From: a bacterium
GTDB taxonomy: Bacteria > Desulfobacterota > JADFVX01
Reading direction: 5' to 3'
DNA: 58,505 nt
Assembly: GCA_032250935.1 (NCBI GenBank)
Contig: JAVVFD010000002.1
Coordinates: 1 to 58,505, forward strand
This document shows, piece after piece, positions 6,193-58,386 of the stretch. Under the pieces are notes generated by a model. It was given only the letters and a program-made list of their open reading frames with translations, was not told the origin of the DNA and made no database searches. The position numbers were made by a program, and so were the translations under genes. The stretch's first letter is position 1; each line of letters starts with the position of its first letter.

Positions 6193-6224
6193 AGGGTGTT
6201 TGTTTTAAAGTAAGAGGTTTATGT

Positions 6225-6761: not shown

Positions 6762-6814
6762 CGGTTTATATTTAAAGATCCGGCTTGCCTGCAAGCGATT
6801 TATTAAAAGTTTTG

Positions 6815-8058: not shown

Positions 8059-8334
8059 ACATATCTCCTTATGGCATAACGGGTAGATTTAAGCTCCAGG
8101 CGCATCACCTGAAGATCGATAAAAGACTTAAGCAGGGGGTCTGGTAGTTAAGGCGCTTTCTTGACCGATTATTAACTTTTCGGACAGTAATTTCAAGTTC
8201 TTTAGCTGATATATTCTGAAAATTTGCACCCTTCGGAAAATGAGATCAAAGAATTCCGTTTGTATTTTCGTAAGTTACTCTTTACCCTGTAGCATAAGGG
8301 ACGGCAAGATGCATTGTTAAATCTGCCATATCTC

Positions 8335-8445
8335 GTTTTCACGCTCCCGCGTGGGAATGCACATCCCGCACTCAGCGGGCACACCGCGACAAGGTTCCCA
8401 GGCAGGAGCATGGGAGCCAGAGTATTCGGGGTTTCCGGATGGACA
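8335..8445. repeat. REP-like cluster of short GC-rich hairpins
   Basis: Three hairpins: TCCCgcgtGGGA, CCCGCactcaGCGGG and TCCCAggcaggagcaTGGGA. They lie in the 387-nt gap between the methyltransferase and bpt. Confidence 0.45.
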
Positions 8446-19308: not shown

Positions 19309-19322
19309 CCGGATGGCCGCCT

Positions 19323-38566: not shown

Positions 38567-38585
38567 TTAATTAACTGCGGAGGAA

Positions 38586-41500: not shown

Positions 41501-44500
41501 TCAGCCTAACGGCCAGCCGAACTGGGAGCCATCAAACCAGTACGGTATACCGAACGGCGGAGTTACGTGGGAGAATATCGACTTCCCGAATAATGGCGCT
41601 GCCTTCCTTGCGAGTACATCCGTATCAGCGGCAACTGTCAAGGTATGTAACGTTTGTCACAGCAGGACGACAGATGTAGGGATTACGGATTCAAAGAAGA
41701 GATACAGAAAGGATATGAGCGGCGGTATCACAGAAGCGCACTATGTCGGCAACCAGTGTACAACCTCCTGTCATAAGCATACCGCAGGATTCGAGGGTGT
41801 GAGCTGCGAGGGATGCCACGGCATGCCGCCGGAAACGGGCCTCATGCTTCAGGATCTTGGCGCATACGACGCCAGTCCGACCGGCGAGGGGGCGCACGTC
41901 AAGCACGGTTCGATCTTCATCAGCGGGCCCAGGTGTAACGTATGTCACGATAAATCCATCGGCGGTATGGATCCATCGGGAGCGACTAACACCACGATCG
42001 ATATCAACTTCAAGGCCGACAATCAGTTGGGATCCTATACGACGGGTACTTATGACGCGACAGGCGCGGCGCACAATCCTGCGTATAACGGCAGCGTCAC
42101 CACCGGCGGAACATTTGTATGCTCTAACGTCAAGTGTCACGGTTCGGCCCTGACAAGCGGCAACGGCACCGATACCACTCCGGTTTGGAACAACCTTGCC
42201 ACTGGGGCCTGCGGTAAGTGCCACGGCGCCAAGACCGCGCCATCAACGGCTGCGGACGGCGGAACGGGATATCCCGGCTCGGGCGCCCACCAGAAGCATG
42301 CCGGATGGGGAGCAGGCGAGTACGATATCATGTGCCAGACATGTCATGATACGACGCTTACTACGGCCACCACCTTTGTAGAGAGTCTGCATGTTAACGC
42401 CGATACAGGCAGTACGGGTATAGGCATTGAGCCTGCCTACAATGATACGGCAACTGCGTTCAACTATGTAGACGGAACAAATACATGTGAAAACGCAGAC
42501 TGTCACGGCGAGAACAGCGTAGTCTGGACAGCCGGTGCTCAGACCTGTGATAGCTGCCATAACGGCGCCTCTGATGCGGATAACTTCACATACTCCAACC
42601 TGAGCGGCGTTGTTGCGAAAATAAATAACACCGAGTATACGAACAGCGGCCACGGCAGAACTACTGCTTATCCGGTGTCCGGCAACCCGGGCGCAAATAA
42701 GGGATGTACTGATTGCCATACAGCGACCAAGGACCACAGTACCGGGGCCACATATTTCAGGCTTCTTAATACGGATGATCCGAATACGCTATGCCTCAGC
42801 TGTCATGGTTCGGGCGCCGAACTTACCGGTGCATTCGGCACCATAACCGGTTACCAGGGTCATACATATGACAACCTGAGTACGGCAGGTTACACCAACC
42901 TGACTACATGGCACTTTACACCCAAGTGTATCGACTGCCACGACCCGCATGGTGACGGCAACATATTCATGATGCACAGCAAGGTCTCAGACGAGGGCAG
43001 TTCGACTGTTGCGCCTCTCGGTGTGCCGACCAACTTCCCGAATAACTCGACGGTAATCTTCTTGTCAGTTACAGGCGTTAACTCTTATGATGACGGCGAC
43101 GGCACGGCCAACCTCTGTGTTGTATGCCACGACAGGACGAGCCATAACGGAAACAGCGGATCCCATGCTGGTTATGCTGGGCTGGATTGTCGTGGCTGCC
43201 ATGACCATAAGCTCGGATTTACGCCTTCCGGGTGCGACGGTTGCCACGGTCAGGCCGGTGTGCAGATCTATCCGCCCGACGGACCTAATCTCCCGCTTGA
43301 CTGGGCTGAAGAGGCGGCAACGCCTGCATCGGTCGGCTCTCATGAGGCGCATGTCACCAAGCTGAGTTATGCATGCGCAGAGTGTCACGGCGACGGCAAC
43401 GGACAGGACCAGCCTCATGGTACAGGTAAGACCAATGCATACATGAAGAATCTTACATCATTGCATGGCGCGAACTTCACTCCTAACCTTGCGGGTACCA
43501 GCTCAGTTGTCGATGACACCTGTGCAAATGTTGACTGCCACAGTGGTCGCGCCTACCAGAGGTCATGGATTAACAATCCGACCACCTGCGATGCTTGCCA
43601 CGGTGGAAGGACCTCTGACGGGCTCAACCAGATCAGTACTGGCAGCCACGTGAAGCACACAGGCAACGGTGCAACGGAGTACGACTTCCAGTGTACGCTC
43701 TGTCACGTAGACAACACGGGGAACTTTGATCATTATAGTGTTGCCGACGTGGATCTGAACTTCACAGGACAGGGCACCGGCAGCTCTTATACGAGAGGAA
43801 CAGGATTTGCAACATTCACTACCGGAGCCGAGTGGGGTACATGTACGAGTGCATGCCACGGTGACGGGTTGCCCAGCTCAAGCAGCGGCACTCCGACATG
43901 GGGCGGGTCTTCGCTAACCTGCGAGAACTGCCACTATGCGACGGGGAACAAGGCCTTAATGAGCGCGCCGCATCCGACCCATCTGAATGCCGGAACCTAT
44001 AACTTCGACTGTTTCAATTGCCACGTACAGACTACTACGGACAATACGACGATCAACAACTACACGGCGCATGTTAACGGGAACCGTAACGTCGATTTCG
44101 ACACATACCTGGACAACGATTCGGGGAGCTTTAACGGAACCGCGACCAAGCAATGTCTCAACATCTACTGTCACAGCAACGGTACGGATACCGACGGCGT
44201 GGGACCATTCCCGATGGGGAACTTCACGGCGGACTGGGACGGAGCGACGCAGGGGTGCAAGTACTGCCACGGCGACGAGACCCTGGGCGGCTGGACTTCT
44301 GCAATGCCGAACTACGCCAACGGCGCGCCGAAGGCGAACAGTCACGCCAAGCATGTCAACGGCGGATACCAGTGCATCGACTGCCACGAGGTGACTCTGG
44401 CGACGAACGCCGCGATAGGGAACTATACCGCGCACATCAACGGCAACTACAATATTGACATAAACGCCTCTTATGGTGCGTCCGCAGCCTATACTCCCGG

Positions 44501-45767: not shown

Positions 45768-45770
45768 GGG

Positions 45771-48700
45771 GTGTCGGAGATGATTATTAAAAATAGCATT
45801 CAAAAGCTCTCAAGGAACAATCAAAGGCGACTAAAAGATGGAGAAGTTAGAGAGATGACCGGTGTAACTGAAAACAACCTAAACTCCAAAGGGAGAAGTG
45901 CTATGCGGAACTTTTTGAAATCTCTTGCTTTGCTGAAGGGATCAATAGGAAAGATTGAAGGGGTACGGGAAAGATCTGTACCGAGTCGGTCCAAGATCGC
46001 TCCACTGGTCTTGAGCCTCTCTCTTTGTATCGCTTTTTTTTCTGTGACAAGCAGCGCGAATGCTGCGGAAGAGTTTCTCAGTGTTGACAGTAATGGGGCC
46101 AGCTCCGGTTGGGGGGGGGCATGGACCGATGTACAATTCTCTGATGGAACCGCTATAGGACCAGCCGCAAAAAATGCCAGGTCCACCTTCGGATTAACTG
46201 CACCGACAGGAACCGGTGTCATCACAAATGTGGCCGTCATAGCAGAATGTATGGACGCCGGAGGCCCGGAGATGATAAACGGTGTTGTCAGAACCGGCGG
46301 TACCGATTATCTTGGAACTTCTGTGTCAATGACTGGCGCTTATTCTGAATATCAGTTTGACTGGGCAACAAATCCTGGTGGTGGTAACTGGACATGGGCT
46401 CAGCTTGCTGCTCTTGAGGCCGGCGTTGAAGCGACAGCCAGTGGAGGTTGGGGGGGGACTCCGCTATGTAACTTTATTACTGTTATGGTTACATATGTTC
46501 CGCAGACTCAGGATCTGACGCTCTTTGAGGATATTTCATATGATGAATATACCCCTGTCTCAGATGTTCCTTTGGCAAAGGTGAGGACCAGTTCAGGCGG
46601 GGACATTGTCGGGAACGGATATAGCGTTACAGCTGTTACAGTAACACTGGGTGATGGTGGAGGTACACCACTTAGCCCCACCGGCCCTATTAACGTCTAT
46701 TATTCCACTATTGATGATTTAGTCACAGCGAAGAGCGGCGGTTCTAAAGGGATATGTGCCTCCCCTGTTGTGGGCACTCCATGTAATTTCGCTCTTTCCG
46801 GTATCGGTAATGAGACAGGTTATATGTTTTTCACCATTGATCTCGTATCAGGCGCCCTTGGAGATTATGATTTAACAGTATCAAGTTTCACCATTGGCGG
46901 CGCTTCCACGGACCTGATACCTCTGCCCAAGACGACGGCAGCGAAAAGCGTAAAACCGCCTACTCAGACACTTGACTACTTTTTCGACTACGCCCAGAGG
47001 TACAGGGCTAATGTGACTGCGCCAGTTACGGATCTCCTTCTTGCGAGAATAAATACGAACGCGACAAGTGAAGGGAAGCCGTTTGCCAACGTGAGTGCAG
47101 GTGTTTTCGGAACTATTTCATCAATTGATAATCTAAGGGTCTGGTGGAATACGACAGAAGATTTTGGAAGTGCAACGAAAATAGGTGAAGTTCTTGCTCC
47201 TACGCGAGATACGCTTTATAATATCGACATGACACTAAATGGTGGAGGGGGGTATGTGCGGGGATATATTTATTTCTCTATTAGCATGCCTGATGCCGGT
47301 AACAACGGCGGGTATTCCCTCCATATTAATAGCATGAGGGACAATAAGGGACCTGCCGATGACAACCTCCCTCTTCCGCGGAATACTACGACGAACTATC
47401 TGATTGATCCCTATAAGATCCAGGTCTGTGCTGAATGTCATGCCTATCCTCCCTATGACGCGCCTGCAACGAGGGGTACGCCGACAGGCGCGGTGCTTGG
47501 AAACCATTCTGCGCATGCAAGGTTCAACATGATGAAGTGTTCCAGCTGCCATGGAGATACGACGTCGGGTGAGTCGGACCCTGCTCATAGAAATAACTAT
47601 GTTGAACTCAGGAACCCTCTGGGTCCGCCTTCAGGCGCAGGCGTCTATTCCAGGGGCTACACATTCGCGCAGTCTACAACGACCACTCTGGGTACATGCT
47701 CTGCTATCGAATGCCATAACGGCATCGCCCAGACATGGGGGACGTCGAATACCATGGTCTGTAACGATTGTCACCTTTCTGGATCGGCTGATACTGACGA
47801 CTTTACATACGATGAATTCACCTCCACTGCAGTACCGAGGTTGTATTCATCCGAATGGGCATATTCAGGGCATGGAAAGTCTTCGGGTAACTACGACCTG
47901 ACGGGTAATCCGGCTGCTGGATTGGACTGCACTAATTGTCATGACTCTACACTTCCTCACGGTGATTCGATCATTCCTTACAGGACGAAGGCAACTGGAA
48001 ACATGGACATTTTCTGTCAAAATTGTCACGGTACGTCAGCAGAGATAGGCTCTCTCTTTACAACGGTTTCAACTGTTGCCAGGGGTATCAAGACCCACTC
48101 CAGGGGCGTGTTTATAGAAGAAAACTATAAGAGCCTTGGAACGTGGAGGGTTGAGACCCTTAAATGTATTGATTGTCACGATCCGCATGGGGACGGCACA
48201 AGTGGCAGCGGCAACAAGGGGATGCTTCACAAGCAGGTATGGACCGGTGGCAGCGACACTAAGGGACGCCCACTGCCTTTCGATGCCGGTTATTCAACCG
48301 TCGTCTTCAACAGCCCCACCGGTGTTGGGGGATACGGTAATAATGACGCCGCAACGACTTACATCTGCGAGGTCTGTCACTCAACTACCTCTTTCCATCA
48401 GCGTAACGGAGGAGGTACGGCCCATTTCGAAGGGATTAGATGCCCCGACTGTCACCAGCATGACAAAGGCTGGGCGCCTTACGAGGAGTGTACCGAATGT
48501 CACGCTGTTCCGAGGAACTATCTCTATAACGTAAGACAGATCGTAGAGAAGGATGGCGATGGCGCTGGTGACTTTGTAAAATTAAGCCGTCACGTGAGCA
48601 ACGGTACGGCCACCGAGATAGTTACCTCTTTTGACTGTGTCGTCTGCCACGCCGAGGGTGATTACGCTAAAGTCAATCTTAACGCCGGCTTCACTAGCGC

Positions 48701-49826
48701 TACTTTACATAACGACGGATCTACATCTGGAGTTTCAGCAGCAACCGACAGGAAAGTTCACCTGAGGGATGTTGATAACCCTGACTCTTACTTTATCTGG
48801 AATAAGAATGAATCAAATGCCGCCACCAAAGAGACATATAGAACAAATATGGACAACTTCTGCATGGCCTGCCATGATACTGACGGTGCATCGGGTATTG
48901 CCGTTAACGCCGGTGACAATGGTCTTGATCTGACGCCGACCGCTGATATCGCACTCAAGCCTTTCAACTCGAATGATACTATCAGAAACGGCAGGGACGG
49001 TTTTACAAGCAGAACAAGGGTAGTCGATGTATGGGATCAGTTCAATCCCGGTTCTGGTGGCTCCGGTGCCGGTTATAACGGAAACCCCTCTCAGCATGGC
49101 GTTCGTGGCGCAAGGTACAGTACGAAAAACGCCGGATGGAACGCCTCTAACGGCGGTGCTTGGACGACACATACTCTGAAAGACGGGACAACAGTGCTTG
49201 GTGGTGCAGGTGGAGCCGGTGAGACGGCGATGCTTCACTGTTCAGACTGCCATCTCTCCGAAACGAACGCACATGGCGCAACGAACGCATGGCATATGCT
49301 CCTCAACGGTACGGTAAACGATCACACCTCCGATACCGTAATGGGTGGACAGCTCGATACGACCACATCATCAGTCGTATGCTACAAGTGCCACAACTCA
49401 GGTGTCTATTCTAACTCTGCCAGTACACTTCCGAGATGGTCCCATGATGACGACGGCAACGTATGGGGCAGATCATATGGTAATGAACTAGGAGACAAGG
49501 GTAACGAACTCGGCCCAACATGCCTGCAGTGCCATGCTGGTGATGGTTTCGGACGTATTCACGGACGTGGTTCGGCCACAGACGGTGACCAGGGCGCTAC
49601 CTACGGTACAAATATAGGTACCTATGGAAAATACAGGTTTATGCCCGGCGCATACCAGAGCATATCACCCGGAACGAACGCTGATGATACAGCATGGACC
49701 CAGGGAAGCGGGACCGCCATGACATGCTACCTGACTCCAAATTCAACATGGTCCGGATGCTCTCAGCATAGTGGCGCAAAGTCCGGTGGTGGAACTGCCA
49801 ACTATGGCAGGGCATTGACATATTAA
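45771..49826 (+). CDS. chimeric secreted protein: non-haem beta-rich N-terminal region + multihaem cytochrome c C-terminal region
   Basis: 14 CxxCH plus 1 CxxxxCH, all located after aa 550. The likely true start is ATG 45903 (MRNFLK..), with a GGGAGA RBS 6 nt upstream. A signal-like segment LVLSLSLCIAFFSVTSSANA-AEE follows it. Confidence 0.85.
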   Translation: MSEMIIKNSIQKLSRNNQRRLKDGEVREMTGVTENNLNSKGRSAMRNFLKSLALLKGSIGKIEGVRERSVPSRSKIAPLVLSLSLCIAFFSVTSSANAAEEFLSVDSNGASSGWGGAWTDVQFSDGTAIGPAAKNARSTFGLTAPTGTGVITNVAVIAECMDAGGPEMINGVVRTGGTDYLGTSVSMTGAYSEYQFDWATNPGGGNWTWAQLAALEAGVEATASGGWGGTPLCNFITVMVTYVPQTQDLTLFEDISYDEYTPVSDVPLAKVRTSSGGDIVGNGYSVTAVTVTLGDGGGTPLSPTGPINVYYSTIDDLVTAKSGGSKGICASPVVGTPCNFALSGIGNETGYMFFTIDLVSGALGDYDLTVSSFTIGGASTDLIPLPKTTAAKSVKPPTQTLDYFFDYAQRYRANVTAPVTDLLLARINTNATSEGKPFANVSAGVFGTISSIDNLRVWWNTTEDFGSATKIGEVLAPTRDTLYNIDMTLNGGGGYVRGYIYFSISMPDAGNNGGYSLHINSMRDNKGPADDNLPLPRNTTTNYLIDPYKIQVCAECHAYPPYDAPATRGTPTGAVLGNHSAHARFNMMKCSSCHGDTTSGESDPAHRNNYVELRNPLGPPSGAGVYSRGYTFAQSTTTTLGTCSAIECHNGIAQTWGTSNTMVCNDCHLSGSADTDDFTYDEFTSTAVPRLYSSEWAYSGHGKSSGNYDLTGNPAAGLDCTNCHDSTLPHGDSIIPYRTKATGNMDIFCQNCHGTSAEIGSLFTTVSTVARGIKTHSRGVFIEENYKSLGTWRVETLKCIDCHDPHGDGTSGSGNKGMLHKQVWTGGSDTKGRPLPFDAGYSTVVFNSPTGVGGYGNNDAATTYICEVCHSTTSFHQRNGGGTAHFEGIRCPDCHQHDKGWAPYEECTECHAVPRNYLYNVRQIVEKDGDGAGDFVKLSRHVSNGTATEIVTSFDCVVCHAEGDYAKVNLNAGFTSATLHNDGSTSGVSAATDRKVHLRDVDNPDSYFIWNKNESNAATKETYRTNMDNFCMACHDTDGASGIAVNAGDNGLDLTPTADIALKPFNSNDTIRNGRDGFTSRTRVVDVWDQFNPGSGGSGAGYNGNPSQHGVRGARYSTKNAGWNASNGGAWTTHTLKDGTTVLGGAGGAGETAMLHCSDCHLSETNAHGATNAWHMLLNGTVNDHTSDTVMGGQLDTTTSSVVCYKCHNSGVYSNSASTLPRWSHDDDGNVWGRSYGNELGDKGNELGPTCLQCHAGDGFGRIHGRGSATDGDQGATYGTNIGTYGKYRFMPGAYQSISPGTNADDTAWTQGSGTAMTCYLTPNSTWSGCSQHSGAKSGGGTANYGRALTY

Positions 49827-49858
49827 TAGTTAGTGTCAAGTAATAAGGAATAATTACC

Positions 49859-49886
49859 GGGGGATCGTAAGATCCCCCTTTTTTTT
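49859..49886 (+). terminator. Rho-independent terminator closing the NHL-cytochrome operon
   Basis: GGGGGATC-gtaa-GATCCCCC, an 8-bp GC-rich stem, followed by T8. Confidence 0.85.
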
Positions 49887-49963
49887 AAATGCCGGTTTTT
49901 TTACATGAACCTTTAGAAGTATTCCCTGTCGAAACAGAGACAGAAGAACAATAAATGATCTTC

Positions 49964-49991
49964 TTGCCCGCATTCTAGCTAAAACTATATT
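49964..49991 (+). promoter_or_regulatory. candidate sigma-70 promoter of the maturation locus
   Basis: TTGCCC (49964-49969), a 16-nt spacer and TATATT (49986-49991), in an AT-rich gap about 50 nt upstream of ATG 50042. Confidence 0.35.
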
Positions 49992-50041
49992 TAATATATT
50001 ATATTTAAGTTGTTTTCGGTTTCCCTTGTTCGAGTTAATAT

Positions 50042-50617
50042 ATGAATGGAAGTAAAATAAAGTCATTCCTCTTCGCTATAGTGATCGCATTTTTTGCGTC
50101 AGTTATCTCCAACTGGCCCGGAGCATTTGCAAATTTGAGCTTCAAATTAGGCCTTTATGACCAGAAATCGGAAGAAGAAGAGGTTAAAATGGCCGTTAAG
50201 CAATATAATATCAACAGCGCCCAGTTTTACAATACTGCAGGAGAGGATAAGTCCGCTCTGCCGATTATCCCCGCCGCCCCCCTTCTTAAACGGAGACTAT
50301 TCAAGGATATTAATACGCTCAAAAAGGACGGCCTCCTTATCGTTTTTGACAGGGACCGTGACGAGTTTTTAAATATATATTTCCCCAGGAGAGACCTAGC
50401 CGTTGCGGAAACTAGAGAAGTCTGGGCCATGGTGCTTCAGGATGTTAAAACGAGGGAGCCAAGAACGACGGTTAAGGCAGAGAGTGTGAAAGTCCGCTAT
50501 GTCTTAAAAAAGGAAGCTTATTCAAGACTTGGATTGGTCTGGGTTGTCTACGAGGCGGATGTATACCCCGATGATGAAAGAGCTATACCTCCTTTAAATA
50601 TAAAGCCTGTTTTATAG
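50042..50617 (+). CDS. membrane-anchored protein of unknown function (paralogue A)
   Basis: 191 aa with one N-terminal hydrophobic helix (FLFAIVIAFFASVI) and then a soluble alpha/beta-looking domain. It shows weak hand-aligned similarity to the 55033-55566 product. Confidence 0.6.
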   Translation: MNGSKIKSFLFAIVIAFFASVISNWPGAFANLSFKLGLYDQKSEEEEVKMAVKQYNINSAQFYNTAGEDKSALPIIPAAPLLKRRLFKDINTLKKDGLLIVFDRDRDEFLNIYFPRRDLAVAETREVWAMVLQDVKTREPRTTVKAESVKVRYVLKKEAYSRLGLVWVVYEADVYPDDERAIPPLNIKPVL

Positions 50618-50760
50618 ATAAGCGACTAAGAGTTTTTGAATCTGGTGTCTTATTTATTCTTCTAATGCCGACTACAATAAAAGTAGTTTTCCATCAAGTT
50701 GGATGGCTCAAGTTTTAGCGGCTCATTGGATATAAAGGGATACTATAAATTAAAAAATAA

Positions 50761-51777
50761 ATGAAAAAGATTTTCCAATATCTGGGATCAAAAGAATTAC
50801 TAATCTCTACTATTTTGTTCATAGGCCTTTATCTGCTTATAGAGTTATATGGTCTGTTTCGCCTTGGACCAGCCACATATCGGGAGATTTTTCACTCGGC
50901 AGCGATGAAGACTGCCTCTGTCTTAATCCTCATTAATGCACTTCTCCTCCTTCGTCACCTTGTCGGTGCATCAATATGGATGAAAGGGGGGATAACACTA
51001 TTTTCCTTCGGCCTCATAATAATTGTCACCGCCATTTGGGTGAGCATATACACACGATTTGAGGGAAATTTTGTAAGAGACGAGGGCGCCTCTTTTTCAG
51101 CCTTTAAGTCTGATTATATTAAAGAGACTCTCTTTATGCCGAGGTTGGGTGCTCTTCCACAGGTAGGTTTTACCTTTCACAAAATCTCTGTCCAGGCCAA
51201 TGATGAGCTTACGAAATTAGTAAAGCTCAGTGCCGACGTATCTCATGCTGGTAGAACTGTTGATGGAATCGTCGAGCGTACTATAGATTCTGAGAACCTT
51301 CTAATTTCCGACTGGACCTTGATCAGCTTTGTTGACTTCGGCTATTCTACAAGGCTCGTCCTCCATGATTTCACAGAGAAGGAAATAGAGAAACAGAAAA
51401 TATATATGAAGCTGTTTCCAGCAGGTGCAGAAGAACGGGCAGAGGGCATGTATCTGGGTTATTCTTTTTATATCAAGCTATATCCCGACTATATTGACAA
51501 TGATGGCATGCCTGGCACCCGATCGCTTTATCCCGAGAATCCGATGCTCAACTTAAGGATTGTAAGGAATAAAGACATAGTTTTTGACGGGCTGGTCGAG
51601 CCGGGGGGAAAAGTGAAGTTCGATAATATTATAGTACAGTTTCCCGAGGTGAAGATGTGTGTTGAGATGAGGTTCGTCAGGGACTACGGTCTTCCTATAG
51701 TCGCCGTTAGTATCCCCTTTTTCTTTATTGCTATATCAATGTTGCTGCTTGGAAGAAAGAGAGCGCGAATGGCATAA
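50761..51777 (+). CDS. short ResB/CcsB-like membrane protein (divergent)
   Basis: 338 aa with ResB-like topology. N-terminal helices are followed by an FEGNFVRDEGASF block, a soluble middle region and a C-terminal helix after VRDYG. These blocks parallel those in the two longer ResB genes. It lacks the FHISF histidine helix. Confidence 0.55.
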   Translation: MKKIFQYLGSKELLISTILFIGLYLLIELYGLFRLGPATYREIFHSAAMKTASVLILINALLLLRHLVGASIWMKGGITLFSFGLIIIVTAIWVSIYTRFEGNFVRDEGASFSAFKSDYIKETLFMPRLGALPQVGFTFHKISVQANDELTKLVKLSADVSHAGRTVDGIVERTIDSENLLISDWTLISFVDFGYSTRLVLHDFTEKEIEKQKIYMKLFPAGAEERAEGMYLGYSFYIKLYPDYIDNDGMPGTRSLYPENPMLNLRIVRNKDIVFDGLVEPGGKVKFDNIIVQFPEVKMCVEMRFVRDYGLPIVAVSIPFFFIAISMLLLGRKRARMA

Positions 51778-51852
51778 AGGCAAGAAAAAAACTCTTTTAA
51801 CTTTCAAGGGCTACTCCCTGTTCAGCTCGCATCAATATGGTGTTACCTCGTC

Positions 51853-53262
51853 GTGATAAAACTAGCTTTTCAAAGATTATCTAACCTATTTAAGTGGTTT
51901 AAAAAACCTAAGACCACTATTTATATTCTTGTTACTCTTTCATTTCTTTATCTTCTTGGTCTGATAATACCGCAGAAAATTTTTTTTGAGACTAAAGCTG
52001 CATATGATGCCTGGATTGGCAAGTCTCCTCTCCTCTTTAATTTTATTGACTGGATAGGCTTTACTGATATATATGTCGCGCCCTTTACTCTCTTTTTATT
52101 AACCCTCTTTTTTATCAATCTTCTTGCCGTTACCATTGACAGGATCCCAATATTGCTCCGCAGGGCATATATCGGATCAGATATAAAATTTCCCTTTGAC
52201 CTTAAATCGCTTCTCCGTTCAAGTAAAGTTAGAGAAATAAATGTAGAAAAAGGGGAAGAAGGTGCGATTAAAAAAAGTATAGAGAACTACTTTATTCGGC
52301 ATAGGTGGCATGTAAAAATAAAAAATGAAGGGAATCTTATACTAGCAGTGCGAAACCGCTTTGCAGTTATAGGCTTCCTCTTCTTTCATATAAGCTTCCT
52401 CTTCTTTCTTGCAGGCGCACTCCTTATCTTTTACAGTCGCTTCAGTGGCCTGATAGTTCTTACGGAAGGAGAGTCCTTTTCCGGCAACATAAGCCGTTTC
52501 AGGAAGGTAAATCGTATGCCCAAGATCATGAAAGATCTCTCGATGCCTAAAATTACCCTTGAAGAAGTGGAGATGAATTATGAGGGAGACAGAAAGACGG
52601 ACCTCTATATTAACCTTGATGTAGAGGATGGGGTCGGAGTTAGAAGAGAATGGGCTGGCGTTAATCAGCCTGTAGTTCTCGGAAACGTTTCTCTGCTTGC
52701 CATGAATGCCGGTGTATCACCTCTTTTCATACTTAGAAGAGTAGATGATAATAGTGAGGTAGACGGGGCCTGGCTCAGTCTTAATGTCCTTGACGGGAAT
52801 ATTGATAGCTTCAGTTTTTCAAATAGCTCTACCATTACCTATACGACATGGTTTTACCCTGACTACCAGATTGAAGATATGTATGAAAGCAGCAAAACTC
52901 CTGAAATCAGGAATCCTGCATTTCACGTTGTCGTTCAGGATAAAGGAACTGTTTTGGCGGAAGCGACTATCCGAAAAGGGCAGGGGATGATATTTGAACC
53001 ATATATTCTGATTTTTGAGGAAATAAGGGCCTGGGGCGAATTGCATCTCGTGAGGGAAGCTGGCCCTCCTTTTCTGGTAGCAGGATTTATCCTCGCAATT
53101 ACAGGTCTCTTTATGAGGCTTATATTCTACCGAAGAGAGATAAGGATTGCTCTTAGTGACGGCAAGCTCTATCTGGCCGGATCCAGTGACCTACACCAGT
53201 TTTCATTTGAAGAAAAGGTTGATAAGATTAAGGCAGAACTTTCAACAGAATTAATGACGTAG
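51853..53262 (+). CDS. ccsB: cytochrome c biogenesis protein ResB/CcsB (System II), copy 1
   Basis: 469 aa with a GTG start. N-terminal helix ending LGLIIPQ, His-containing helix FLFFHISFLFFLAGALLIF, LTEGESF block, large soluble loop and C-terminal helix after VREAGPPF. Confidence 0.8.
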   Translation: MIKLAFQRLSNLFKWFKKPKTTIYILVTLSFLYLLGLIIPQKIFFETKAAYDAWIGKSPLLFNFIDWIGFTDIYVAPFTLFLLTLFFINLLAVTIDRIPILLRRAYIGSDIKFPFDLKSLLRSSKVREINVEKGEEGAIKKSIENYFIRHRWHVKIKNEGNLILAVRNRFAVIGFLFFHISFLFFLAGALLIFYSRFSGLIVLTEGESFSGNISRFRKVNRMPKIMKDLSMPKITLEEVEMNYEGDRKTDLYINLDVEDGVGVRREWAGVNQPVVLGNVSLLAMNAGVSPLFILRRVDDNSEVDGAWLSLNVLDGNIDSFSFSNSSTITYTTWFYPDYQIEDMYESSKTPEIRNPAFHVVVQDKGTVLAEATIRKGQGMIFEPYILIFEEIRAWGELHLVREAGPPFLVAGFILAITGLFMRLIFYRREIRIALSDGKLYLAGSSDLHQFSFEEKVDKIKAELSTELMT

Positions 53263-53350
53263 AAAAGATCTTAAGATGGACTGATTTCTGAAAGAGTGCT
53301 ATTATCAAGTCTTGCATATAATAAAACTTCAACGAATGTAGATAATTAAA

Positions 53351-54220
53351 ATGACAACATTTGAAACTATTCTGATTTGGGGCTCAGTTTATCTTTATTC
53401 TCTTGTCGCCTTACTGCTTCTTACCGGCTTTATCTTTAATAAAGACAAAATTGTAAGTTGTGCCGGTTATGTTCTTGTTCCGGCCTTTATTGCTCATACA
53501 ATGGAATTTGCACTCCGTTGGGCAAGAACAGGTTATTTTCCTGCCCTTGGCGACTATGAAAATGCCGTTACGGGGGGATGGTTTGCTATCGCATTTACGC
53601 TTTACTTCTTCTTTAATAAAAAGCCCATTAAAGGGATAGCAGTTGTAACGGTTCCTTTTGTGCTGCTCTTCCTTGGATATGGCATCATGAAGAACCCTGT
53701 CCAACTCCCTCTTGCAATCTCTCTAAAGAGCAGCTGGCTCGTTGTCCATGTCTTGTTTGCACAGATCGCCTTTGGTGCTGCGGCGATAGCAAGCGGAATA
53801 GGAGCTATTTACCTGCTTAAAGACAACCGGAAAAAGAAGGGGATTGAAAGCCCTTTCTTTAATCGTTTTCCTCCATTGCCCGTACTTGAGGAAATTATGT
53901 TCAAGTTTGCCATATACGGGTTCATTTCTATGGCGATAGAGATTGCGGCCGGGTCCATATGGGCGAAGGAGTTATGGGGCGCCTATTGGGGGTGGGACCC
54001 TGTCGAAGTATGGAATCTTACGTCATGGCTCATTTACGGCATCGCAATTCACCTGAAGTTGACACTGAACTGGGAGGGTAGGCGACTTGCCTGGCTTTAC
54101 ATAGCCGCCATGCTAGCAATTATTATCACCTTCTGGGGGGTCGATCTGGTCGTTGAAAAGAGCCACAGTTTTTTCAGGATGGAAGGGGAACCGGAATTAC
54201 GGCAGATGATGGGAAAGTAA
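53351..54220 (+). CDS. ccsA: cytochrome c assembly protein CcsA/ResC (System II haem handling/lyase), copy 1
   Basis: Eight-helix-type membrane protein with the Trp-rich WWD motif WAKELWGAYWGWDPVEVWNLTSW, followed by IHLKL. Confidence 0.88.
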   Translation: MTTFETILIWGSVYLYSLVALLLLTGFIFNKDKIVSCAGYVLVPAFIAHTMEFALRWARTGYFPALGDYENAVTGGWFAIAFTLYFFFNKKPIKGIAVVTVPFVLLFLGYGIMKNPVQLPLAISLKSSWLVVHVLFAQIAFGAAAIASGIGAIYLLKDNRKKKGIESPFFNRFPPLPVLEEIMFKFAIYGFISMAIEIAAGSIWAKELWGAYWGWDPVEVWNLTSWLIYGIAIHLKLTLNWEGRRLAWLYIAAMLAIIITFWGVDLVVEKSHSFFRMEGEPELRQMMGK

Positions 54221-54267
54221 TTACAGATAAAAACAGTCGATCATAGATTTTGAAAGGAGGATTGAGC

Positions 54268-55008
54268 ATGGATAAAAAAACAAGTATAGTAGTATTAATG
54301 ATTATTTCCTTAATGGTGATGCCTGCATTTTTGGCCTTTGCCGGAGATCTGAATAAAGCCCTTGTTAATGCAGCCAACAAGGGAGATAACAAGTCGGTAA
54401 ATAAGTTACTTGCGCAGGGTGCAGATGTGAGGTTGGCGCTTGTCCAGGCAATTGAAGGCGGAGACGCAAATGCGGCCAAAGTGCTTATCGAGAAAGGAGC
54501 AGACCTTGATTTTATAATTGAAGGTGGCGGCAACAACCTCCTCATGATGGCCGCACGGGGCGGGCATGCAGATGCCGTTGGTATTCTTTTAGATAAGGGG
54601 ATGGAAGTAAATGATTTAAATAGTAAAGGGGAAAGCCCTTTGTTTATAGCGACAAACAGTAAAAAAATTGAAGTTGCCAACCTGCTTCTGGAAAGGGGGG
54701 CGGATATCAGCCTGAAAAACAAAAGCGGTTGGTCTCCAATTCATGTAGCGGCCAAGAAATGTCAAACAGATATGGTTAATCTTTTTCTGGATAATGGTGC
54801 CGATATCGAGGATAGAGAGTCGAGAGGATATACGCCCCTAATAATGGCCTCTGAGTGGGACTGCCCCGCAACGGTAAAGTTGCTTTTGGAAAGGGGTGCA
54901 AAGCCCGATGCTCTGACGAAAAAGAAAGAAAGCGCCCTATGGTTTGCACAGCGTGAGAAGTTCGGAGAGGTCCTTAAATTATTGCAACAATATTTACCGA
55001 AGGAATAG
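54268..55008 (+). CDS. periplasmic ankyrin-repeat protein
   Basis: I prefer ATG 54268, with an AGGAGG RBS 7 nt upstream, to the ORF-track start at 54250. Signal peptide VLMIISLMVMPAFLAFA. About six ankyrin repeats (GDNKSVNKLLAQGADV, GHADAVGILLDKGMEVN, G.SPLFIAT, GWSPIHVAA, GYTPLIMAS). Confidence 0.85.
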   Translation: MDKKTSIVVLMIISLMVMPAFLAFAGDLNKALVNAANKGDNKSVNKLLAQGADVRLALVQAIEGGDANAAKVLIEKGADLDFIIEGGGNNLLMMAARGGHADAVGILLDKGMEVNDLNSKGESPLFIATNSKKIEVANLLLERGADISLKNKSGWSPIHVAAKKCQTDMVNLFLDNGADIEDRESRGYTPLIMASEWDCPATVKLLLERGAKPDALTKKKESALWFAQREKFGEVLKLLQQYLPKE

Positions 55009-55032
55009 ATATATTTTTATAAATTAATTATC

Positions 55033-55566
55033 GTGAGTATAGTAAAAAAAACTCTGCTTATGTTTGGCGCTTCATTGGCGCTTTTTTTCATCTTTGCCTT
55101 CATAGATGAGTATGAGAATCTTTTTGGAGCAGGCAAGGACAATCTTCTTATCACTGTCGATCCTTATGAAATAGAAGAGACTCTCAATCGTTATATTGAG
55201 AAACTTTCTGCCGCCTATCTGCATGCCTCTTCCGATGCAATCAAAGAAATTCCGCAGACAGATGATCTCAGAAAAGAGCTTGAAGAGGATATCATGTTCC
55301 TTGAAAGAGATGGAAGAATTCAGCACTACCAGGTAAGAAGTCTGTGGCTTCAAAATGTCAACCAGGTTGCAGCCGATAAGGTGAGGGCTTCCACAAGCGA
55401 ACTCATATCCGTACGGTACCTCGACTCATCGGATAGTTCCGAACTCAGGTCTCTCCCGGAAGCAGTTTTTAACATGAGCTATGTCCTTGAATATGGTAAA
55501 AAGGGATGGGTTGTTTCACGCTATGATGTAGTGAACATTGCAGCAAGTTCCAAAGAGGGTCAATGA
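55033..55566 (+). CDS. membrane-anchored protein of unknown function (paralogue B)
   Basis: 177 aa with one N-terminal helix (LLMFGASLALFFIFAFI). The shared blocks with the 50042 product are YN/YI..A.Y, L+K.L..DI..L.+DG, and YVL......WVV...DV. Its stop overlaps the next start (ATGA). Confidence 0.6.
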   Translation: MSIVKKTLLMFGASLALFFIFAFIDEYENLFGAGKDNLLITVDPYEIEETLNRYIEKLSAAYLHASSDAIKEIPQTDDLRKELEEDIMFLERDGRIQHYQVRSLWLQNVNQVAADKVRASTSELISVRYLDSSDSSELRSLPEAVFNMSYVLEYGKKGWVVSRYDVVNIAASSKEGQ

Positions 55567-56849
55567 AGAAGAGCTTTACTAAAACCGTCTGGGACTCATT
55601 AGGTTCAAGAGATCTATCGGTATTTATTTTTATTATGGGCCTTACTTATTTATTTGTAGGCTATATCTTCTCCACCATTGTCCCTCCCGGTTGGTTTGAT
55701 TCGTTTCAGTCTCTGCTGCCCCTTCTTGTCATGTATACATTGTTCTTCATCAACCTTGTTATATGTGAAATAAAGTGGATACCCGTTGCTATAGGGCGTT
55801 GCCGGCAGCTCGAACTTCCAAGGCCGGATAATCTGAAGCGCTTCGGAAAGGGAATAGGTCTGGATGAATCTTACAGTATAAATTCCTTGAAACAAAGCCT
55901 CTCTAAGAGTTTCTTTCGAATAAAGGAATACGAAGTTGAGGGGAAATCGGTCCTGTTTTACATAAGAGGCCTTACTGCACCACTTGGAAATATAATATTT
56001 CATATCAGTTTTCTATTCCTTCTAGCCGGTATACTTGTTGGGTTACTATATCGAGTTGAGGGTAGTTTTTCTATAATAGAGGGCAGGGGCTTTGATGGAA
56101 CGCCGGGATTTTATAACGATATTAAGGGTTCTCCTCTCTCTGAATTACCTTATATCAAATTTACTCTGGATTCGATAATACCCGAGTTCTGGGAAGGGGA
56201 ACTTCTTTTTACAGACCTTAGGGCCGATTTAACGATGGAGGATGGCTCTAAAGGGAGTTCGTGGCTAAGCGAGGCGATTGGTATAGATGGTGCGTCTGTC
56301 ACCGTGAACGGGATAGGGTACGCAATTAGTTACAATCTTAAAGACAGGGAAGGGAAAGAGCTAAAAAGTGGTACTGTCTCCATGCCTAATCTCTTTGCGC
56401 CCGGCATGGAAGATACTCTCACTATTCCAGGTTATCCCCACAGATTCCTTGTCGCATATTATCCTGACGCCAAGATAAATGGAAGCAATATCTCAAACCT
56501 ATCAATGAACCGAAAAAATCCGGTGATAGGCCTGAGGGTATACAGAGGGAGACTTCCTGTATTTACAGGGCTGCTAAGAGAGGGAGAGGAGGCCGAGTTC
56601 GATAATCATTATATTTCATTTCCTGAAGTGAAATATAGGGGTGATTTTAAATTTGTTAAAGACAGTGGATTCTATTTTATATGGATCGCCTTTGTCATGA
56701 TGATTTCAGGTCTTGTCTGGCGCTTCTTATTCTGTAGAAAAGAGGTTCTTATAATAGAAGATAAAGGTGAATACTCTATTTATCTGAAAAGTGAGTATTT
56801 CCCTCTTCTTTTTGAAAAGAGGATAAGAGAGATGGCAGGTCAATTGTGA
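55563..56849 (+). CDS. ccsB: cytochrome c biogenesis protein ResB/CcsB (System II), copy 2
   Basis: 428 aa. His helix NIIFHISFLFLLAGILVGLLY, IIEGRGF block and a C-terminal helix after VKDSGFYF. The architecture matches copy 1. Confidence 0.8.
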   Translation: MKKSFTKTVWDSLGSRDLSVFIFIMGLTYLFVGYIFSTIVPPGWFDSFQSLLPLLVMYTLFFINLVICEIKWIPVAIGRCRQLELPRPDNLKRFGKGIGLDESYSINSLKQSLSKSFFRIKEYEVEGKSVLFYIRGLTAPLGNIIFHISFLFLLAGILVGLLYRVEGSFSIIEGRGFDGTPGFYNDIKGSPLSELPYIKFTLDSIIPEFWEGELLFTDLRADLTMEDGSKGSSWLSEAIGIDGASVTVNGIGYAISYNLKDREGKELKSGTVSMPNLFAPGMEDTLTIPGYPHRFLVAYYPDAKINGSNISNLSMNRKNPVIGLRVYRGRLPVFTGLLREGEEAEFDNHYISFPEVKYRGDFKFVKDSGFYFIWIAFVMMISGLVWRFLFCRKEVLIIEDKGEYSIYLKSEYFPLLFEKRIREMAGQL

Positions 56850-56862
56850 GGTATAGAAGGCA

Positions 56863-57684
56863 ATGGTGATGAATAGTGAGTTTATATGTCTTTTAATGGC
56901 GGGAATAGCCTATTGGGGCGCCATAATCTTGTCATTTCGGGAGGCATCAAGGCGCATAGCCCTCTACTTTATTATGCCTGCTGCACTGATAGTGCATCTT
57001 GCCTCGGCCATCATCCGTTGGGTAGCAATCGGTCATCCTCCAGTATTCGGCACCTATGAAGCGACACTTGCCGCTTCGTGGTTCATGCCCCTGACGGCGC
57101 TTCTGGCCGTCAAAAGGCATCGACAAATAGAACTCATTATCCCATGGACTGCGCTCTTTGCTCTTTTGCATCTGGCCTATGGCTTCACCTTCAATACGGC
57201 CCGTATCCCAATTACCATATCAGAGCAGAGCATATGGGTTGATCTCCATGCTATGGCGGCATGGCTTGCCTACGGGGAGCTTTTCATATCCTTTTTGCTT
57301 TCCCTGATGTTGCTTATGAAGACTGGCGGGGCGACGATCTTGAAAGGTCTGCCGTCAGAAGAGCTGATGGATGAACTGATCTTCAAATACCTTGTTCTGG
57401 GCTTTATCTTCCATACCCTCATGTTTGCCCTCGGTTCATATTATTCTTCCACCCTCTTCGGCAAGTGGTGGACATGGGACCCTGTAGATACGCTCTTCAT
57501 GATCTCATGGATAATATTCGGCCTCATTGTACATATGCGCCTCTTCTACGGCTGGAAGAATGAGCGGATGGCAAAGCTTGTTATTATCGGCATGATAACG
57601 ATCTTCATAGGTTACTGGTCCCTCGTCTATATCCCCTGGGCTACATATCACATATTTGATATCGGCCTCAAGATGCACGGGTAA
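56863..57684 (+). CDS. ccsA: cytochrome c assembly protein CcsA/ResC, copy 2 (divergent WWD motif)
   Basis: Polytopic membrane protein. Its WWD region reads LFGKWWTWDPVDTLFMISW, followed by VHMRL. 273 aa. Confidence 0.85.
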   Translation: MVMNSEFICLLMAGIAYWGAIILSFREASRRIALYFIMPAALIVHLASAIIRWVAIGHPPVFGTYEATLAASWFMPLTALLAVKRHRQIELIIPWTALFALLHLAYGFTFNTARIPITISEQSIWVDLHAMAAWLAYGELFISFLLSLMLLMKTGGATILKGLPSEELMDELIFKYLVLGFIFHTLMFALGSYYSSTLFGKWWTWDPVDTLFMISWIIFGLIVHMRLFYGWKNERMAKLVIIGMITIFIGYWSLVYIPWATYHIFDIGLKMHG

Positions 57685-57693
57685 AAAAACAAC

Positions 57694-57851
57694 CACACAA
57701 AGCCACGGAGCCACAAAGAAAGGCGAGATAAATTAAAAGATAATTATGCATAGTGCTCTTGCTGAGTATAAAGGCTTTGATTCAGAATTTCCGGGAATAG
57801 TTCATATGGAGATAGAAAGTAAAAAACTTTGTGCCTTTGTGTCTTTGTGTG
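57694..57851. repeat. 25-bp imperfect inverted repeats made of (NCACAAAG)x3 flanking a 108-bp AT-rich core (REP/MITE-like)
   Basis: The left arm is CACACAAAGCCACGGAGCCACAAAG (57694-57718). The right arm is CTTTGTGCCTTTGTGTCTTTGTGTG (57827-57851). They match at 21 of 25 positions as reverse complements. Confidence 0.6.
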
Positions 57852-57893
57852 AGAAAAAAAACTTAAGGAAGGGAGTTTCCGGGAATTTTAATG

Positions 57894-57909
57894 TGGCATA
57901 GATATTGAT
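57894..57909 (+). promoter_or_regulatory. sigma-54-like -24/-12 element upstream of the last ORF
   Basis: TGGCAT-AGATA-TTGAT has correct spacing, but the -12 element reads GA instead of GC. The 11-mer TTTCCGGGAAT occurs twice upstream, at 57788-57798 and 57876-57886. Confidence 0.25.
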
Positions 57910-57981
57910 AGATAAATAAGCTATATGCTACTATGTTCAACTTTTATAAAAAAGATTTAACCCTTAAACGGAGGAAGATAG

Positions 57982-58386
57982 ATGGGCGTTTTTGTAATGA
58001 TGAATAACTATTTCCATGACGTGGCGACGGCTATGTTGCTTGTAGCCTCTATACTAATGATGTATATGATTAGGGAGGTGGAAAGACATGCAAATATTGA
58101 GACAAAGAGATTCTTTGTCGACGTCTACCCCAAAATGTCCCACATAATAGGCGGAACGATCGTCTTTATCTTTATGGCCGGCATAGTGAGGACCTTTACC
58201 TATGAGGAGTTTGAGTGGGCCAATGCAGTGGGGAATGAACAGGTGCCGGCAATAATAGTCAAGCATGTGCTTGTCGTTGTTTTCCTCATTGTAGGTCTGC
58301 GCGGCTGGTTCCGGGTGCATAAAAGGGTGAAAGAGATGAAGGAAGAGATTATTCAGGTCAGGATAGATGAAGCCAATAAATCCTAA
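57982..58386 (+). CDS. small polytopic membrane protein of unknown function
   Basis: 134 aa with three or four hydrophobic helices, several His residues at helix ends (NNYFHD, MSHIIGG, VKHVLVV) and a GGAGGA RBS upstream. Confidence 0.55.
   Translation: MGVFVMMNNYFHDVATAMLLVASILMMYMIREVERHANIETKRFFVDVYPKMSHIIGGTIVFIFMAGIVRTFTYEEFEWANAVGNEQVPAIIVKHVLVVVFLIVGLRGWFRVHKRVKEMKEEIIQVRIDEANKS

Follow-up and report, generated by a model that had tools for sequence, protein, structure and literature searches.

A canonical and a divergent System II cytochrome c maturation set beside giant multihaem cytochrome genes in a Desulfobacterota contig

The stretch of DNA analyzed here, positions 1 to 58,505 of contig JAVVFD010000002.1 from a member of the Desulfobacterota (assembly GCA_032250935.1), is referred to as the window (58,505 nt). 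At positions 50042-57684, it carries eight open reading frames (ORFs), all on the plus strand, that include two sets of System II cytochrome c maturation (ccs) genes belonging to two deeply separated clades. Gene coordinates were taken from an ORF scan of the window, and genes were assigned with Pfam and NCBIfam profile searches, BLASTP, and a hydropathy scan. The block encodes, in order, a small membrane-anchored protein (small A), a short ResB paralogue (ResBs), ResB1, CcsA1, an ankyrin-repeat protein, a second small anchored protein (small B), ResB2, and CcsA2; the ORF scan reproduced these eight codirectional genes with the order and gaps that a preliminary description had reported. The intergenic gaps are 143, 75, 88, 29 or 47, 24, -4, and 13 nt, with the 47-nt gap before the ankyrin gene applying if the ATG at 54268 is the start and the 29-nt gap applying otherwise. 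Related loci (numbered here with the prefix L) were collected through exact-protein look-ups, a species-representative genome scan, and a metagenome scan and were annotated by BLASTP against the window proteins; the comparison covers loci and contigs rather than whole genomes. The genome scan covered GTDB species representatives, was based on two peptide patterns shared with the closest relatives of CcsA2, and recovered only four loci.

CcsA1 (289 aa; 53351-54220, plus strand) and CcsA2 (273 aa; 56863-57684, plus strand, with the start at 56869 in the database gene call) both match PF01578 (Cytochrom_C_asm), at E values of 2e-34 (119.5 bits) and 1.5e-24 (87.3 bits), respectively, against a cut-off of 29.9 bits, and the hydropathy scan predicted multiple membrane helices in each. 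The NCBIfam System II CcsA family nearest to both proteins is TIGR03144, a model that NCBI names 'CcsB'; CcsA1 scored 158.7 bits and CcsA2 101.6 bits, both under the equivalog cut-off of 187.6. Identity is 29% between CcsA1 and CcsA2 and 24% between ResB1 and ResB2 (BLASTP), values that rule out a recent tandem duplication of the ccs sets. The modules had been described as duplicated, and there are indeed two sets, but the copies are not recent, and these identities mark them as ancient, deep paralogues. A neighbor-joining tree of 101 CcsA sequences separated into two deep clades, with CcsA1 in one and CcsA2 in the other, and the CcsA half of the solved CcsBA 25vk grouped on the CcsA1 side. 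The database search found 236 homologues of CcsA1, the best 120 of which were all at least 56% identical, and among the matches listed, those bearing names were mostly CcsA proteins of Nitrospirota. CcsA2 had only 61 homologues among 5.8 billion proteins, and the few named ones carried metagenome-assembled genome (MAG) labels such as 'Deltaproteobacteria,' 'Spirochaetia,' or 'Gallionella.' An exact-sequence look-up with the CcsA2 of the window gave no match.

Both CcsA proteins could be aligned to solved CcsBA structures (25vk and 7s9y), CcsA1 at an E value of 4e-19 and CcsA2 at 3e-10, and residues are named here after Helicobacter CcsBA (PMC11322641). P-His1 and TM-His1 are invariant in all 101 aligned CcsA sequences, both window proteins included, and the C-terminal His (P-His2) is present in every aligned CcsA, within SHSFF in CcsA1 and TYHIFD in CcsA2. 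Given that all three His residues are kept, both CcsA proteins look competent. When the WWD domain was compared with the pattern W-A-x-x-[AS]-W-G-x-[FY]-W-x-W-D-x-K-E, CcsA1 had the canonical form (WAKELWGAYWGWDPVEVW), whereas CcsA2 had a divergent motif that follows the pattern in variant form only (YSSTLFGKWWTWDPVDTL). The consensus is GaIWAKdLWGsYWxWDPVEVW in the CcsA1 clade and GSYYSSxLFGxWWxWDPV in the CcsA2 clade; the latter keeps the Gly, the WxWD core, and the Pro, and its N-terminal half is changed clade-wide (W to Y, A to S, and W to F). At the Helicobacter hepaticus equivalents, CcsA2 has Tyr for W828 and Phe for W833, the A829 position is altered, and the E843 position is variable in the clade. 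In the Helicobacter enzyme, W828, A829, and W833 are assigned to the predicted CxxCH-binding pocket C2 and E843 to pocket C1, and W828 and E843 lie nearest to the haem vinyl groups (PMC11322641). A clade-contrast analysis, with thresholds of at least 90% conservation within the CcsA2 clade and at most 10% sharing with the other clade, picked out about 20 positions, including H58, E121, Y193, Y194, and S195. In the first periplasmic loop, CcsA2 has His58 and Pro59 in place of the Tyr and Phe of canonical proteins, and Glu121, just ahead of P-His1, takes the place of a canonical Leu; the periplasmic location of these residues is suggested by helix order. Overall, the clade-specific substitutions cluster in the periplasmic loops and the WWD domain.

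ResB1 (469 aa; 51853-53262, plus strand), the CcsB partner of CcsA1, and ResB2 (428 aa; 55563-56849, plus strand), the CcsB partner of CcsA2, match PF05140 at E values of 3.6e-32 (112.2 bits) and 2.2e-23 (83.3 bits), respectively, against a cut-off of 24.6 bits. ResB1 has orthologues of 54% identity in L009 and L011, and ResB2 has orthologues of 34-55% identity in many loci. ResBs (338 aa; 50761-51777, plus strand) has no Pfam match and only a faint, subthreshold NCBIfam match and was assigned through its homology to ResB2, to which it is 28% identical over the periplasmic domain and flanking helices (BLASTP, E value of 3e-20); the E value against ResB1 is 5e-8. The hydropathy scan predicted the same four-helix topology for ResBs, ResB1, and ResB2, with three N-terminal helices, a large loop, and one C-terminal helix. 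A 19-sequence alignment places the His of an FHxxF motif in the helix that precedes the periplasmic domain. ResB1, ResB2, and 13 other homologues all have this His, and it is replaced in all four ResBs orthologues (window, L009, L011, and L013), by Ser in the window protein. We take this residue to correspond to the functionally required transmembrane histidine of Chlamydomonas Ccs1. Given that ResB1 and ResB2 gave no match among PDB sequences to the CcsB half of solved CcsBA, the transmembrane His of the ResB proteins was assigned by family conservation rather than by structure alignment. A cytoplasmic loop of about 80 residues is also missing from ResBs. Because the defining transmembrane His is absent, we do not class ResBs as a functional CcsB or as a third synthase subunit, and it is best described, by homology and predicted topology, as a His-less ResB paralogue with a periplasmic domain. 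The earlier count of two complete CcsB/CcsA sets plus a third ResB-like gene thus holds for the two ResB/CcsA pairs, which Pfam supports, and for the homology of the third gene, which is without the transmembrane His.

Small A (191 aa; 50042-50617, plus strand) and small B (177 aa; 55033-55566, plus strand) have no Pfam or NCBIfam match, and the hydropathy scan predicted one N-terminal membrane helix in each, as it did in the ankyrin protein. BLASTP similarity between the two is weak (E value of 0.003); a small-B profile of 41 sequences matched the small-A profile with a probability of 98.3% (E value of 2.3e-14). An AlphaFold2 model of small B built on 41 aligned sequences had a predicted local distance difference test (pLDDT) score of 92.4, and a single-sequence run with a pLDDT of 40 was discarded in its favor. 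In the model, a membrane helix is joined by the alpha+beta cone of an NTF2-like fold, in which three helices pack on a curved antiparallel sheet of five strands. Foldseek matches of small B in the PDB were led by the intermembrane-space domains of ARC6/PARC6, followed by the Tim44 C-terminal domain and VirB8, and also included scytalone dehydratase and other NTF2-like proteins, with E values down to 7.8e-8 and target-normalised TM-scores up to 0.83. Binding of peptides or partner proteins next to a membrane is a known function of several of these matched domains. From the profile match and the model, small A and small B are predicted to be homologous, membrane-anchored NTF2-like proteins, with the periplasmic domain of small A assigned by its homology to small B. 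An exhaustive HMMER search of 1.84 billion proteins found only 52 representative clusters of small-B relatives, nearly all of 170-185 aa, and a word-indexed homologue search with small B recovered the query alone. Both proteins are without cysteine and, thus, are not thiol reductases of the CcsX/ResA type. System II as described consists of CcsA, CcsB, CcsX/ResA, and CcdA/DsbD, and we know of no NTF2-like component in it. The small B gene overlaps the ResB2 gene by 4 nt, an overlap that recurs in relatives and through which the two genes are predicted to be translationally coupled. A small B gene also lies directly upstream of a ResB2-type gene in L001, L007, L009, L010, L014, L016, L017, L019, L024, L027, and L037. 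The ankyrin-repeat protein (252 aa; 54250-55008, plus strand, with a probable start at 54268) matches Ank_2 at an E value of 4.7e-45 and has a hydrophobic N-terminal signal peptide or anchor. It occupies the same position in L009 (3851-4612) and L011 (10931-11701), at 40-41% identity, and is absent from all other locus types; given that it is kept only in the closest relatives, we regard it as a lineage-specific addition.

The pairing of the two CcsA clades recurs outside the window, with a CcsA2-type gene and a canonical-WWD CcsA gene found together in about 15 of the 21 loci that have enough flanking sequence. Two relatives at about 67-77% identity, L011 and L009, preserve the whole arrangement together with the giant cytochromes. 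L011, whose CcsA1 is 77% identical to that of the window, encodes cytochromes of 3099 aa and 1305 aa followed by small A, ResBs, ResB1, CcsA1, the ankyrin protein, and small B, at which point the contig ends. L009, whose CcsA2 is 67% identical, runs from ResBs through ResB1, CcsA1, the ankyrin protein, small B, and ResB2 to CcsA2 and continues with a TPR protein, an orthologue of the window gene orf134, and a B12-binding radical-SAM gene. Orthologues of small A were found in L011 (59% identity) and L013 (36% identity), each immediately upstream of a His-less ResB. In L013, a Nitrospiraceae genome, a CcsA1-type gene (60% identical) precedes small A and ResBs, and there is no multihaem cytochrome within 10 kb. 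On this comparison, set 1 (ResB1 and CcsA1) with its neighbors small A and ResBs fits an ordinary Nitrospirota-type System II. A second architecture, termed type II here (L001, L007, L010, and L019), has the order ResB, small B, ResB2, canonical CcsA, and CcsA2, after which come a 3-haem cytochrome, an NHL protein, a homologue of the 251-aa cytochrome of the window, a 7-haem cytochrome, and then pilus/type II secretion genes. Past the cytochromes in L001, L007, and L010, these are T2SS-F, T2SS-E, PilM/PilN/PilO-like, and secretin genes (for example, L001 14948-20816), which hints that the cytochromes of type II loci may be exported or assembled at the cell surface. The more distant loci (L014, L015, L016, L017, L022, L023, L024, L027, L030, L037, and L038) have a CcsA2-type set and a second ResB gene, usually with small B, and a canonical CcsA is visible in all of them except the short contigs L017 and L027. 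Their usual neighbors are NHL proteins, multihaem cytochromes, an orf134-like protein, and B12-binding radical-SAM genes.

The ccs block of the window begins 216 nt downstream of a cytochrome gene cluster. The first gene of this cluster encodes an NHL-repeat/Ig-like secreted protein (1061 aa; 34614-37799, plus strand) with Pfam NHL and Ig-like domains, and the second encodes a tetrahaem cytochrome c (251 aa; 37811-38566, plus strand) in which all 8 Cys fall within 4 CxxCH motifs. Homologues of the 251-aa cytochrome (29-37% identity) adjoin the same ccs genes in L001, L007, L010, L016, and L017. The third gene encodes a giant cytochrome c (2393 aa; 38586-45767, plus strand) with 46 CxxCH, 11 Cx4CH, 2 Cx3CH, and 1 Cx8CH motif, or 60 predicted haems. 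Given that every one of its 120 Cys falls in a haem-binding motif, the 14 non-CxxCH sites are genuine predicted attachment sites rather than chance strings. The protein matches the CxxxxCH/CxxCH domain TIGR01904 over 10 stretches (E value of 6e-54) and has an orthologue of 55% identity in L011. The fourth gene, with an ORF of 1351 aa (45771-49826, plus strand), encodes a large cytochrome c with 14 CxxCH and 1 Cx4CH motif and a haem-free N-terminal half; its orthologue in L011 is 42% identical. Motif counts and cysteine accounting thus confirm that giant cytochromes with Cx4CH, Cx3CH, and Cx8CH sites neighbor the ccs genes. The first 550 or so residues of the 1351-aa ORF have no haem motifs and contain five unassigned Cys. 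The listed GTG start of this ORF is probably upstream of the real start, given the signal-peptide-like stretch around residue 100 that ends in ...SSANA/AEE. A cluster of an NHL protein and multihaem cytochromes is of the kind associated with extracellular electron transfer. The gene for a further cytochrome, of 193 aa and the Cytochrome_C554 family (27222-27803; E value of 1e-23), is flanked by a histidine kinase gene and gltX and lies 10 kb upstream of the cluster.

Non-CxxCH sites occur in the adjoining cytochromes of the window, of L011, and of about six lineages. Conserved examples are CATTCH and CSLMCH in the type II loci L001, L007, L010, and L019; CY[TN]QGCH in L016 and L017; CTQTCH in L024; and CSQRCH and CGRACH in L035. 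The adjoining cytochromes have CxxCH motifs only in L014 (11 haems), L030 (13 haems), L037 (7 haems), and L038 (at least 2827 aa, 54 haems). The L038 cytochrome ORF (2-8485; metagenome contig Ga0209121_10001082), at least 2827 aa long, has 54 CxxCH and zero noncanonical motifs and is located directly upstream of a ResB2-like/CcsA2-like pair; a second, canonical ResB/CcsA pair lies 3 kb further. This locus is an informative counterexample against which to weigh a dedication to noncanonical motifs. The cytochromes of type II loci are only 155-400 aa.

Despite the adjacency of the ccs and cytochrome genes in the window, the two groups may be transcribed separately. A terminator-like hairpin (49859-49878, plus strand) with an 8-bp stem, 6 of whose pairs are GC, followed by T8 (GGGGGATC-GTAA-GATCCCCC, then T8), lies 33 nt past the cytochrome stop codon, and a promoter-like site is found at 49964-49991, ahead of small A. 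Because this strong terminator-like hairpin follows the last cytochrome gene, the ccs genes may form a transcription unit of their own. No further ccs, ccm, ccdA, or resA genes were found in the other 50 kb of the window, which encodes ordinary chromosomal functions. The G+C content is 0.50-0.55 over the giant cytochrome genes (38000-50000) versus 0.41-0.43 over the ccs genes (50000-58000) and about 0.45-0.47 in the remaining window; the drop could reflect amino acid composition (cytochromes rich in Gly, Ala, and Cys versus membrane proteins rich in Ile, Phe, and Leu) or a different origin. Elsewhere in the window, a sulfate-activation block (17755-22196, minus strand) has two consecutive genes each with an APS-kinase domain, which is fused to ATP-sulfurylase and PUA-like domains in one and to a CysN-like GTPase in the other, and a CysD/PAPS-reductase-family gene comes after the two.

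From gene content, homology, conserved residues, the fold of small B, and synteny, we infer a division of labor between the two sets, along with accessory roles and a substrate specificity. We hold, with moderate confidence, that set 1 would be a general synthase and set 2 a cluster-dedicated synthase whose specificity does not reside in Cys spacing and that the two sets would be nonredundant. Set 1, with its canonical WWD domain and four haem-ligand His residues, is probably an ordinary canonical-clade synthase that carries out the bulk of CxxCH attachment. Small A and ResBs would serve as its accessory pair; having lost the membrane haem-ligand His, ResBs should be unable to form a haem channel and probably acts on the periplasmic side, for example, by holding the apoprotein. 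Set 2 would be a three-gene unit of the rare clade, comprising small B, ResB2, and CcsA2. Since CcsA2 keeps the catalytic His residues and the WxWD core, it should still export and attach haem, and set 2 probably recognizes some structural feature of the cytochrome class encoded in these clusters. Dedication to the cluster is suggested because set 2 has stayed together with a canonical set across wide evolutionary distances, next to NHL proteins and, on the contigs that show them, multihaem cytochromes.

The preliminary description had likewise taken at least one set to be dedicated to the neighboring cytochromes rather than a redundant copy, and that general idea is supported by the two deep clades, the rarity and altered site of the CcsA2 clade, the pairing in about 15 of 21 loci, and the synteny in L011 and L009. 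The two specific roles that it had offered for such a set did not survive as general ones. Dedication to Cx3CH, Cx4CH, or Cx8CH sites does not fit the paired sets of L014, L030, L037, and L038, which adjoin CxxCH-only cytochromes; a paired arrangement in genomes that lack cytochromes with noncanonical motifs had been named in advance as an observation that would speak against the proposal, and these four loci show it at the level of the locus but not at that of the genome. Handling of an extremely long apoprotein does not fit the small cytochromes of the type II loci, and giant apoprotein handling was ruled out as the common denominator on this ground. Both roles are possible as lineage-specific uses.

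Several observations weigh against a general set 1 and a cluster-dedicated set 2. No thiol-reduction genes (CcdA or ResA/CcsX) are present in the window, and the terminator-like hairpin stands between the cytochrome and ccs genes. The role of set 1 as the housekeeping system is judged from the 58,505-nt window rather than from a complete genome, and no single substrate-defining feature was found in the neighboring cytochromes of the compared loci. Genes of the CcsA2 clade stand alone in L003 and L021, and in L004-L006, L034, and L036, which form a basal sub-clade, a short ResB bearing the His is present and no canonical CcsA is in view. In the lineages of these loci, the CcsA2-type enzyme may be a general synthase.

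A more specific version of a dedicated set 2, which we put forward only tentatively, is that small B, ResB2, and CcsA2 would constitute a three-component subclass of System II synthases that has so far gone unrecognized, with the multihaem cytochromes of NHL clusters as its dedicated substrates. Its distinguishing features would be the NTF2-like anchored subunit, the remodeled WWD site, and the extra periplasmic His and Glu, and it would occur mostly alongside a canonical CcsBA. Specificity would again lie outside Cys spacing, possibly in a modification made by a radical-SAM enzyme, and ResBs with small A would be an inactive apocytochrome-handling pair for the canonical synthase.

We also considered that one set, most plausibly that of CcsA2, is a haem lyase dedicated to the neighboring Cx3CH, Cx4CH, and Cx8CH sites, in the manner of Wolinella NrfI and CcsA1, but we judge this rather unlikely. 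The 14 non-CxxCH sites of the giant cytochrome are real by cysteine accounting, and conserved Cx3CH/Cx4CH sites lie beside CcsA2-type sets in further lineages. However, the two-set loci L014, L030, L037, and L038 adjoin cytochromes with CxxCH only, in L038 with at least 54 haems. The genome scan with two peptide patterns gave only four MAGs labeled Deltaproteobacteria, which is weak evidence that such enzymes are absent from Geobacter, in which the TIGR01904 Cx4CH domains were defined. On whether general System II enzymes mature Cx3CH or Cx4CH sites, we found nothing usable in the literature. The altered WWD residues of CcsA2 do fall in the predicted CxxCH-binding pockets (PMC11322641), which speaks for a motif-dedicated lyase; on the other hand, the motif alone is reported to be insufficient for recognition by the dedicated lyases of Wolinella (Kern et al. 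2010, cited in PMC12285233).

It is improbable, in our assessment, that both sets are general CxxCH synthases kept for capacity or coregulation, even though one set of cluster products would require about 80 haems. All catalytic His residues are present in both CcsA proteins and the transmembrane His in both full-length ResB proteins, the adjoining cytochromes are highly variable in size and motif content, and there is a precedent in Geobacter, for which a dosage idea has been advanced to account for four ResB/ResC pairs (PMC2700814). Redundant copies would not be expected to persist as one per deep clade at loci where CcsA2 has diverged to 36-45% identity, nor to show about 20 clade-specific invariant CcsA2 substitutions in the periplasmic loops and WWD domain. 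Both sets are also present at loci that have only small cytochromes of 3-7 haems.

The genes that follow CcsA2 raise the question of a modified substrate. In the window, orf134 (57982-58386, plus strand), a conserved neighbor of ccs clusters with three predicted membrane helices and a weak CopD-like Pfam match, comes directly after CcsA2. It is 86% identical to its homologue in L009, which precedes the B12-binding radical-SAM gene there (both in the region L009 9176-10916), and homologues of 31-37% identity lie beside radical-SAM genes in L015, L016, L022, L023, and L030; L038 has an orf134 homologue of 33% identity, and no radical-SAM match was found in that locus. B12-binding radical-SAM genes lie inside the ccs clusters of L009, L014, L015, L016, L022, L023, L030, L034, and L036. 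Between loci in which CcsA2 is only 36-45% identical to the window protein, the L009-type enzyme keeps 54-56% identity and, thus, is better conserved than CcsA2. Against BchE, a tetrapyrrole-modifying enzyme that acts as the anaerobic Mg-protoporphyrin cyclase, two other cluster enzymes (L014 and L016) score 383-387 bits. That the CcsA2-type set handles a modified haem or apoprotein, made by the B12 radical-SAM enzyme and perhaps with the orf134-like protein, is nevertheless very improbable, given that every BchE score is below the family cut-off of 481, no radical-SAM gene starts before the window ends at 58505 (119 nt past orf134), the type II loci L001, L007, L010, and L019 have none within view, and the association could be one of shared regulation only.

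If set 2 is substrate-specific, as we favor, it would offer a second independent system for mapping the determinants of substrate recognition and would be useful for the heterologous production of large cytochromes for extracellular electron transfer. To our knowledge, Wolinella is the only experimental case in which determinants of substrate choice in System II synthases have been addressed, and we know of no account that explains how dozens of haems are loaded onto a single polypeptide of more than 2000 residues. In the locus and its relatives, nature has repeatedly paired a canonical synthase with a divergent one, the sequence differences being defined and lying at the periplasmic active site, and there are candidate accessory subunits in addition, namely, the NTF2-like anchors and a ResB that is predicted to be unable to bind haem in the membrane. 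Should both sets prove general, the locus would be just one more case of the known placement of System II genes beside cytochrome genes.

Extra System II sets have been described in several organisms, and one of the closest parallels is Wolinella succinogenes. Its three CcsBA isoenzymes, cited in the preliminary description as including two for unusual motifs, are indeed divided among CcsA2 for CxxCH, NrfI for CxxCK, and CcsA1 for Cx15CH (PMC12285233). As in our locus, there is more than one System II synthase per organism, and an extra synthase gene is linked to the gene for its cytochrome substrate (PMC12285233). Unlike the fused CcsBA of Wolinella, the synthases here are split into ResB and CcsA; among the relatives, the extra set does not go with any one unconventional motif, and there are extra partners in the form of NTF2-like anchored proteins, a His-less ResB, and the ankyrin protein. 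A specificity that lies outside Cys spacing would agree with Wolinella, in which the unconventional motif alone is reported to be insufficient for NrfI and CcsA1 (Kern et al. 2010, cited in PMC12285233).

In Geobacter sulfurreducens and Geobacter metallireducens, four ResB/ResC pairs each lie beside multihaem cytochrome genes that they were proposed to serve (PMC2700814). Our locus resembles these in its split ResB/CcsA pairs beside multihaem cytochromes and in the Geobacter-type CxxxxCH/CxxCH domain of its giant cytochrome; it differs in having two pairs in one cluster, one per deep CcsA clade, and in the His-less third ResB-like gene and the small NTF2-like partners. Of the two CcsA-CcsB complexes of anammox bacteria, the second combines a modified WWD motif with a short CcsB (about 320 aa; PMC4222556). 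The combination of a canonical set and an altered-motif set and the short ResB/CcsB forms of 320-335 aa are shared (PMC4222556). However, the anammox motif is WGxxAWGxYFLWDAK, versus GSYYSSxLFGxWWxWDP here, and the short CcsB there has its own CcsA, whereas the short ResB here has neither the His nor a CcsA of its own.

The uet cluster of Candidatus Tenderia electrophaga and some Gallionella encodes the NHL proteins UetH/UetI and the undecahaem cytochrome UetJ, followed by ccsA and ccsB (bioRxiv 10.1101/2022.05.06.490989; PMC10734462), and its ccsAB genes were proposed to mature the cytochromes of that cluster (bioRxiv 10.1101/2022.05.06.490989). As in the window, the System II genes there belong to a conserved cluster that combines NHL proteins with multihaem cytochromes and is associated with extracellular electron transfer. 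The uet cluster has one ccsAB pair with ccsA first, in hosts that also have System I, whereas the window has two pairs with accessory genes. L017, a 'Gallionella sp.' locus of the CcsA2 clade, also departs from the uet order, reading cytochrome, ResB, small protein, ResB, CcsA. With the solved CcsBA of Helicobacter hepaticus (7s9y/7s9z) and 25vk, both CcsA1 and CcsA2 share the WWD core, P-His1, and TM-His1 in register, whereas CcsA2 differs at the equivalents of W828, A829, W833, and E843 and the ResB proteins have no match to the CcsB half. In summary, cluster-linked extra System II sets and their proposed dedication are already described in Geobacter, anammox bacteria, Tenderiales, and Wolinella; what appear to be new are the CcsA2 clade with its remodeled periplasmic site, the regular pairing of a CcsA2-type set with a canonical set, the NTF2-like anchored partners in their small-A and small-B forms, and the His-less ResB paralogue.

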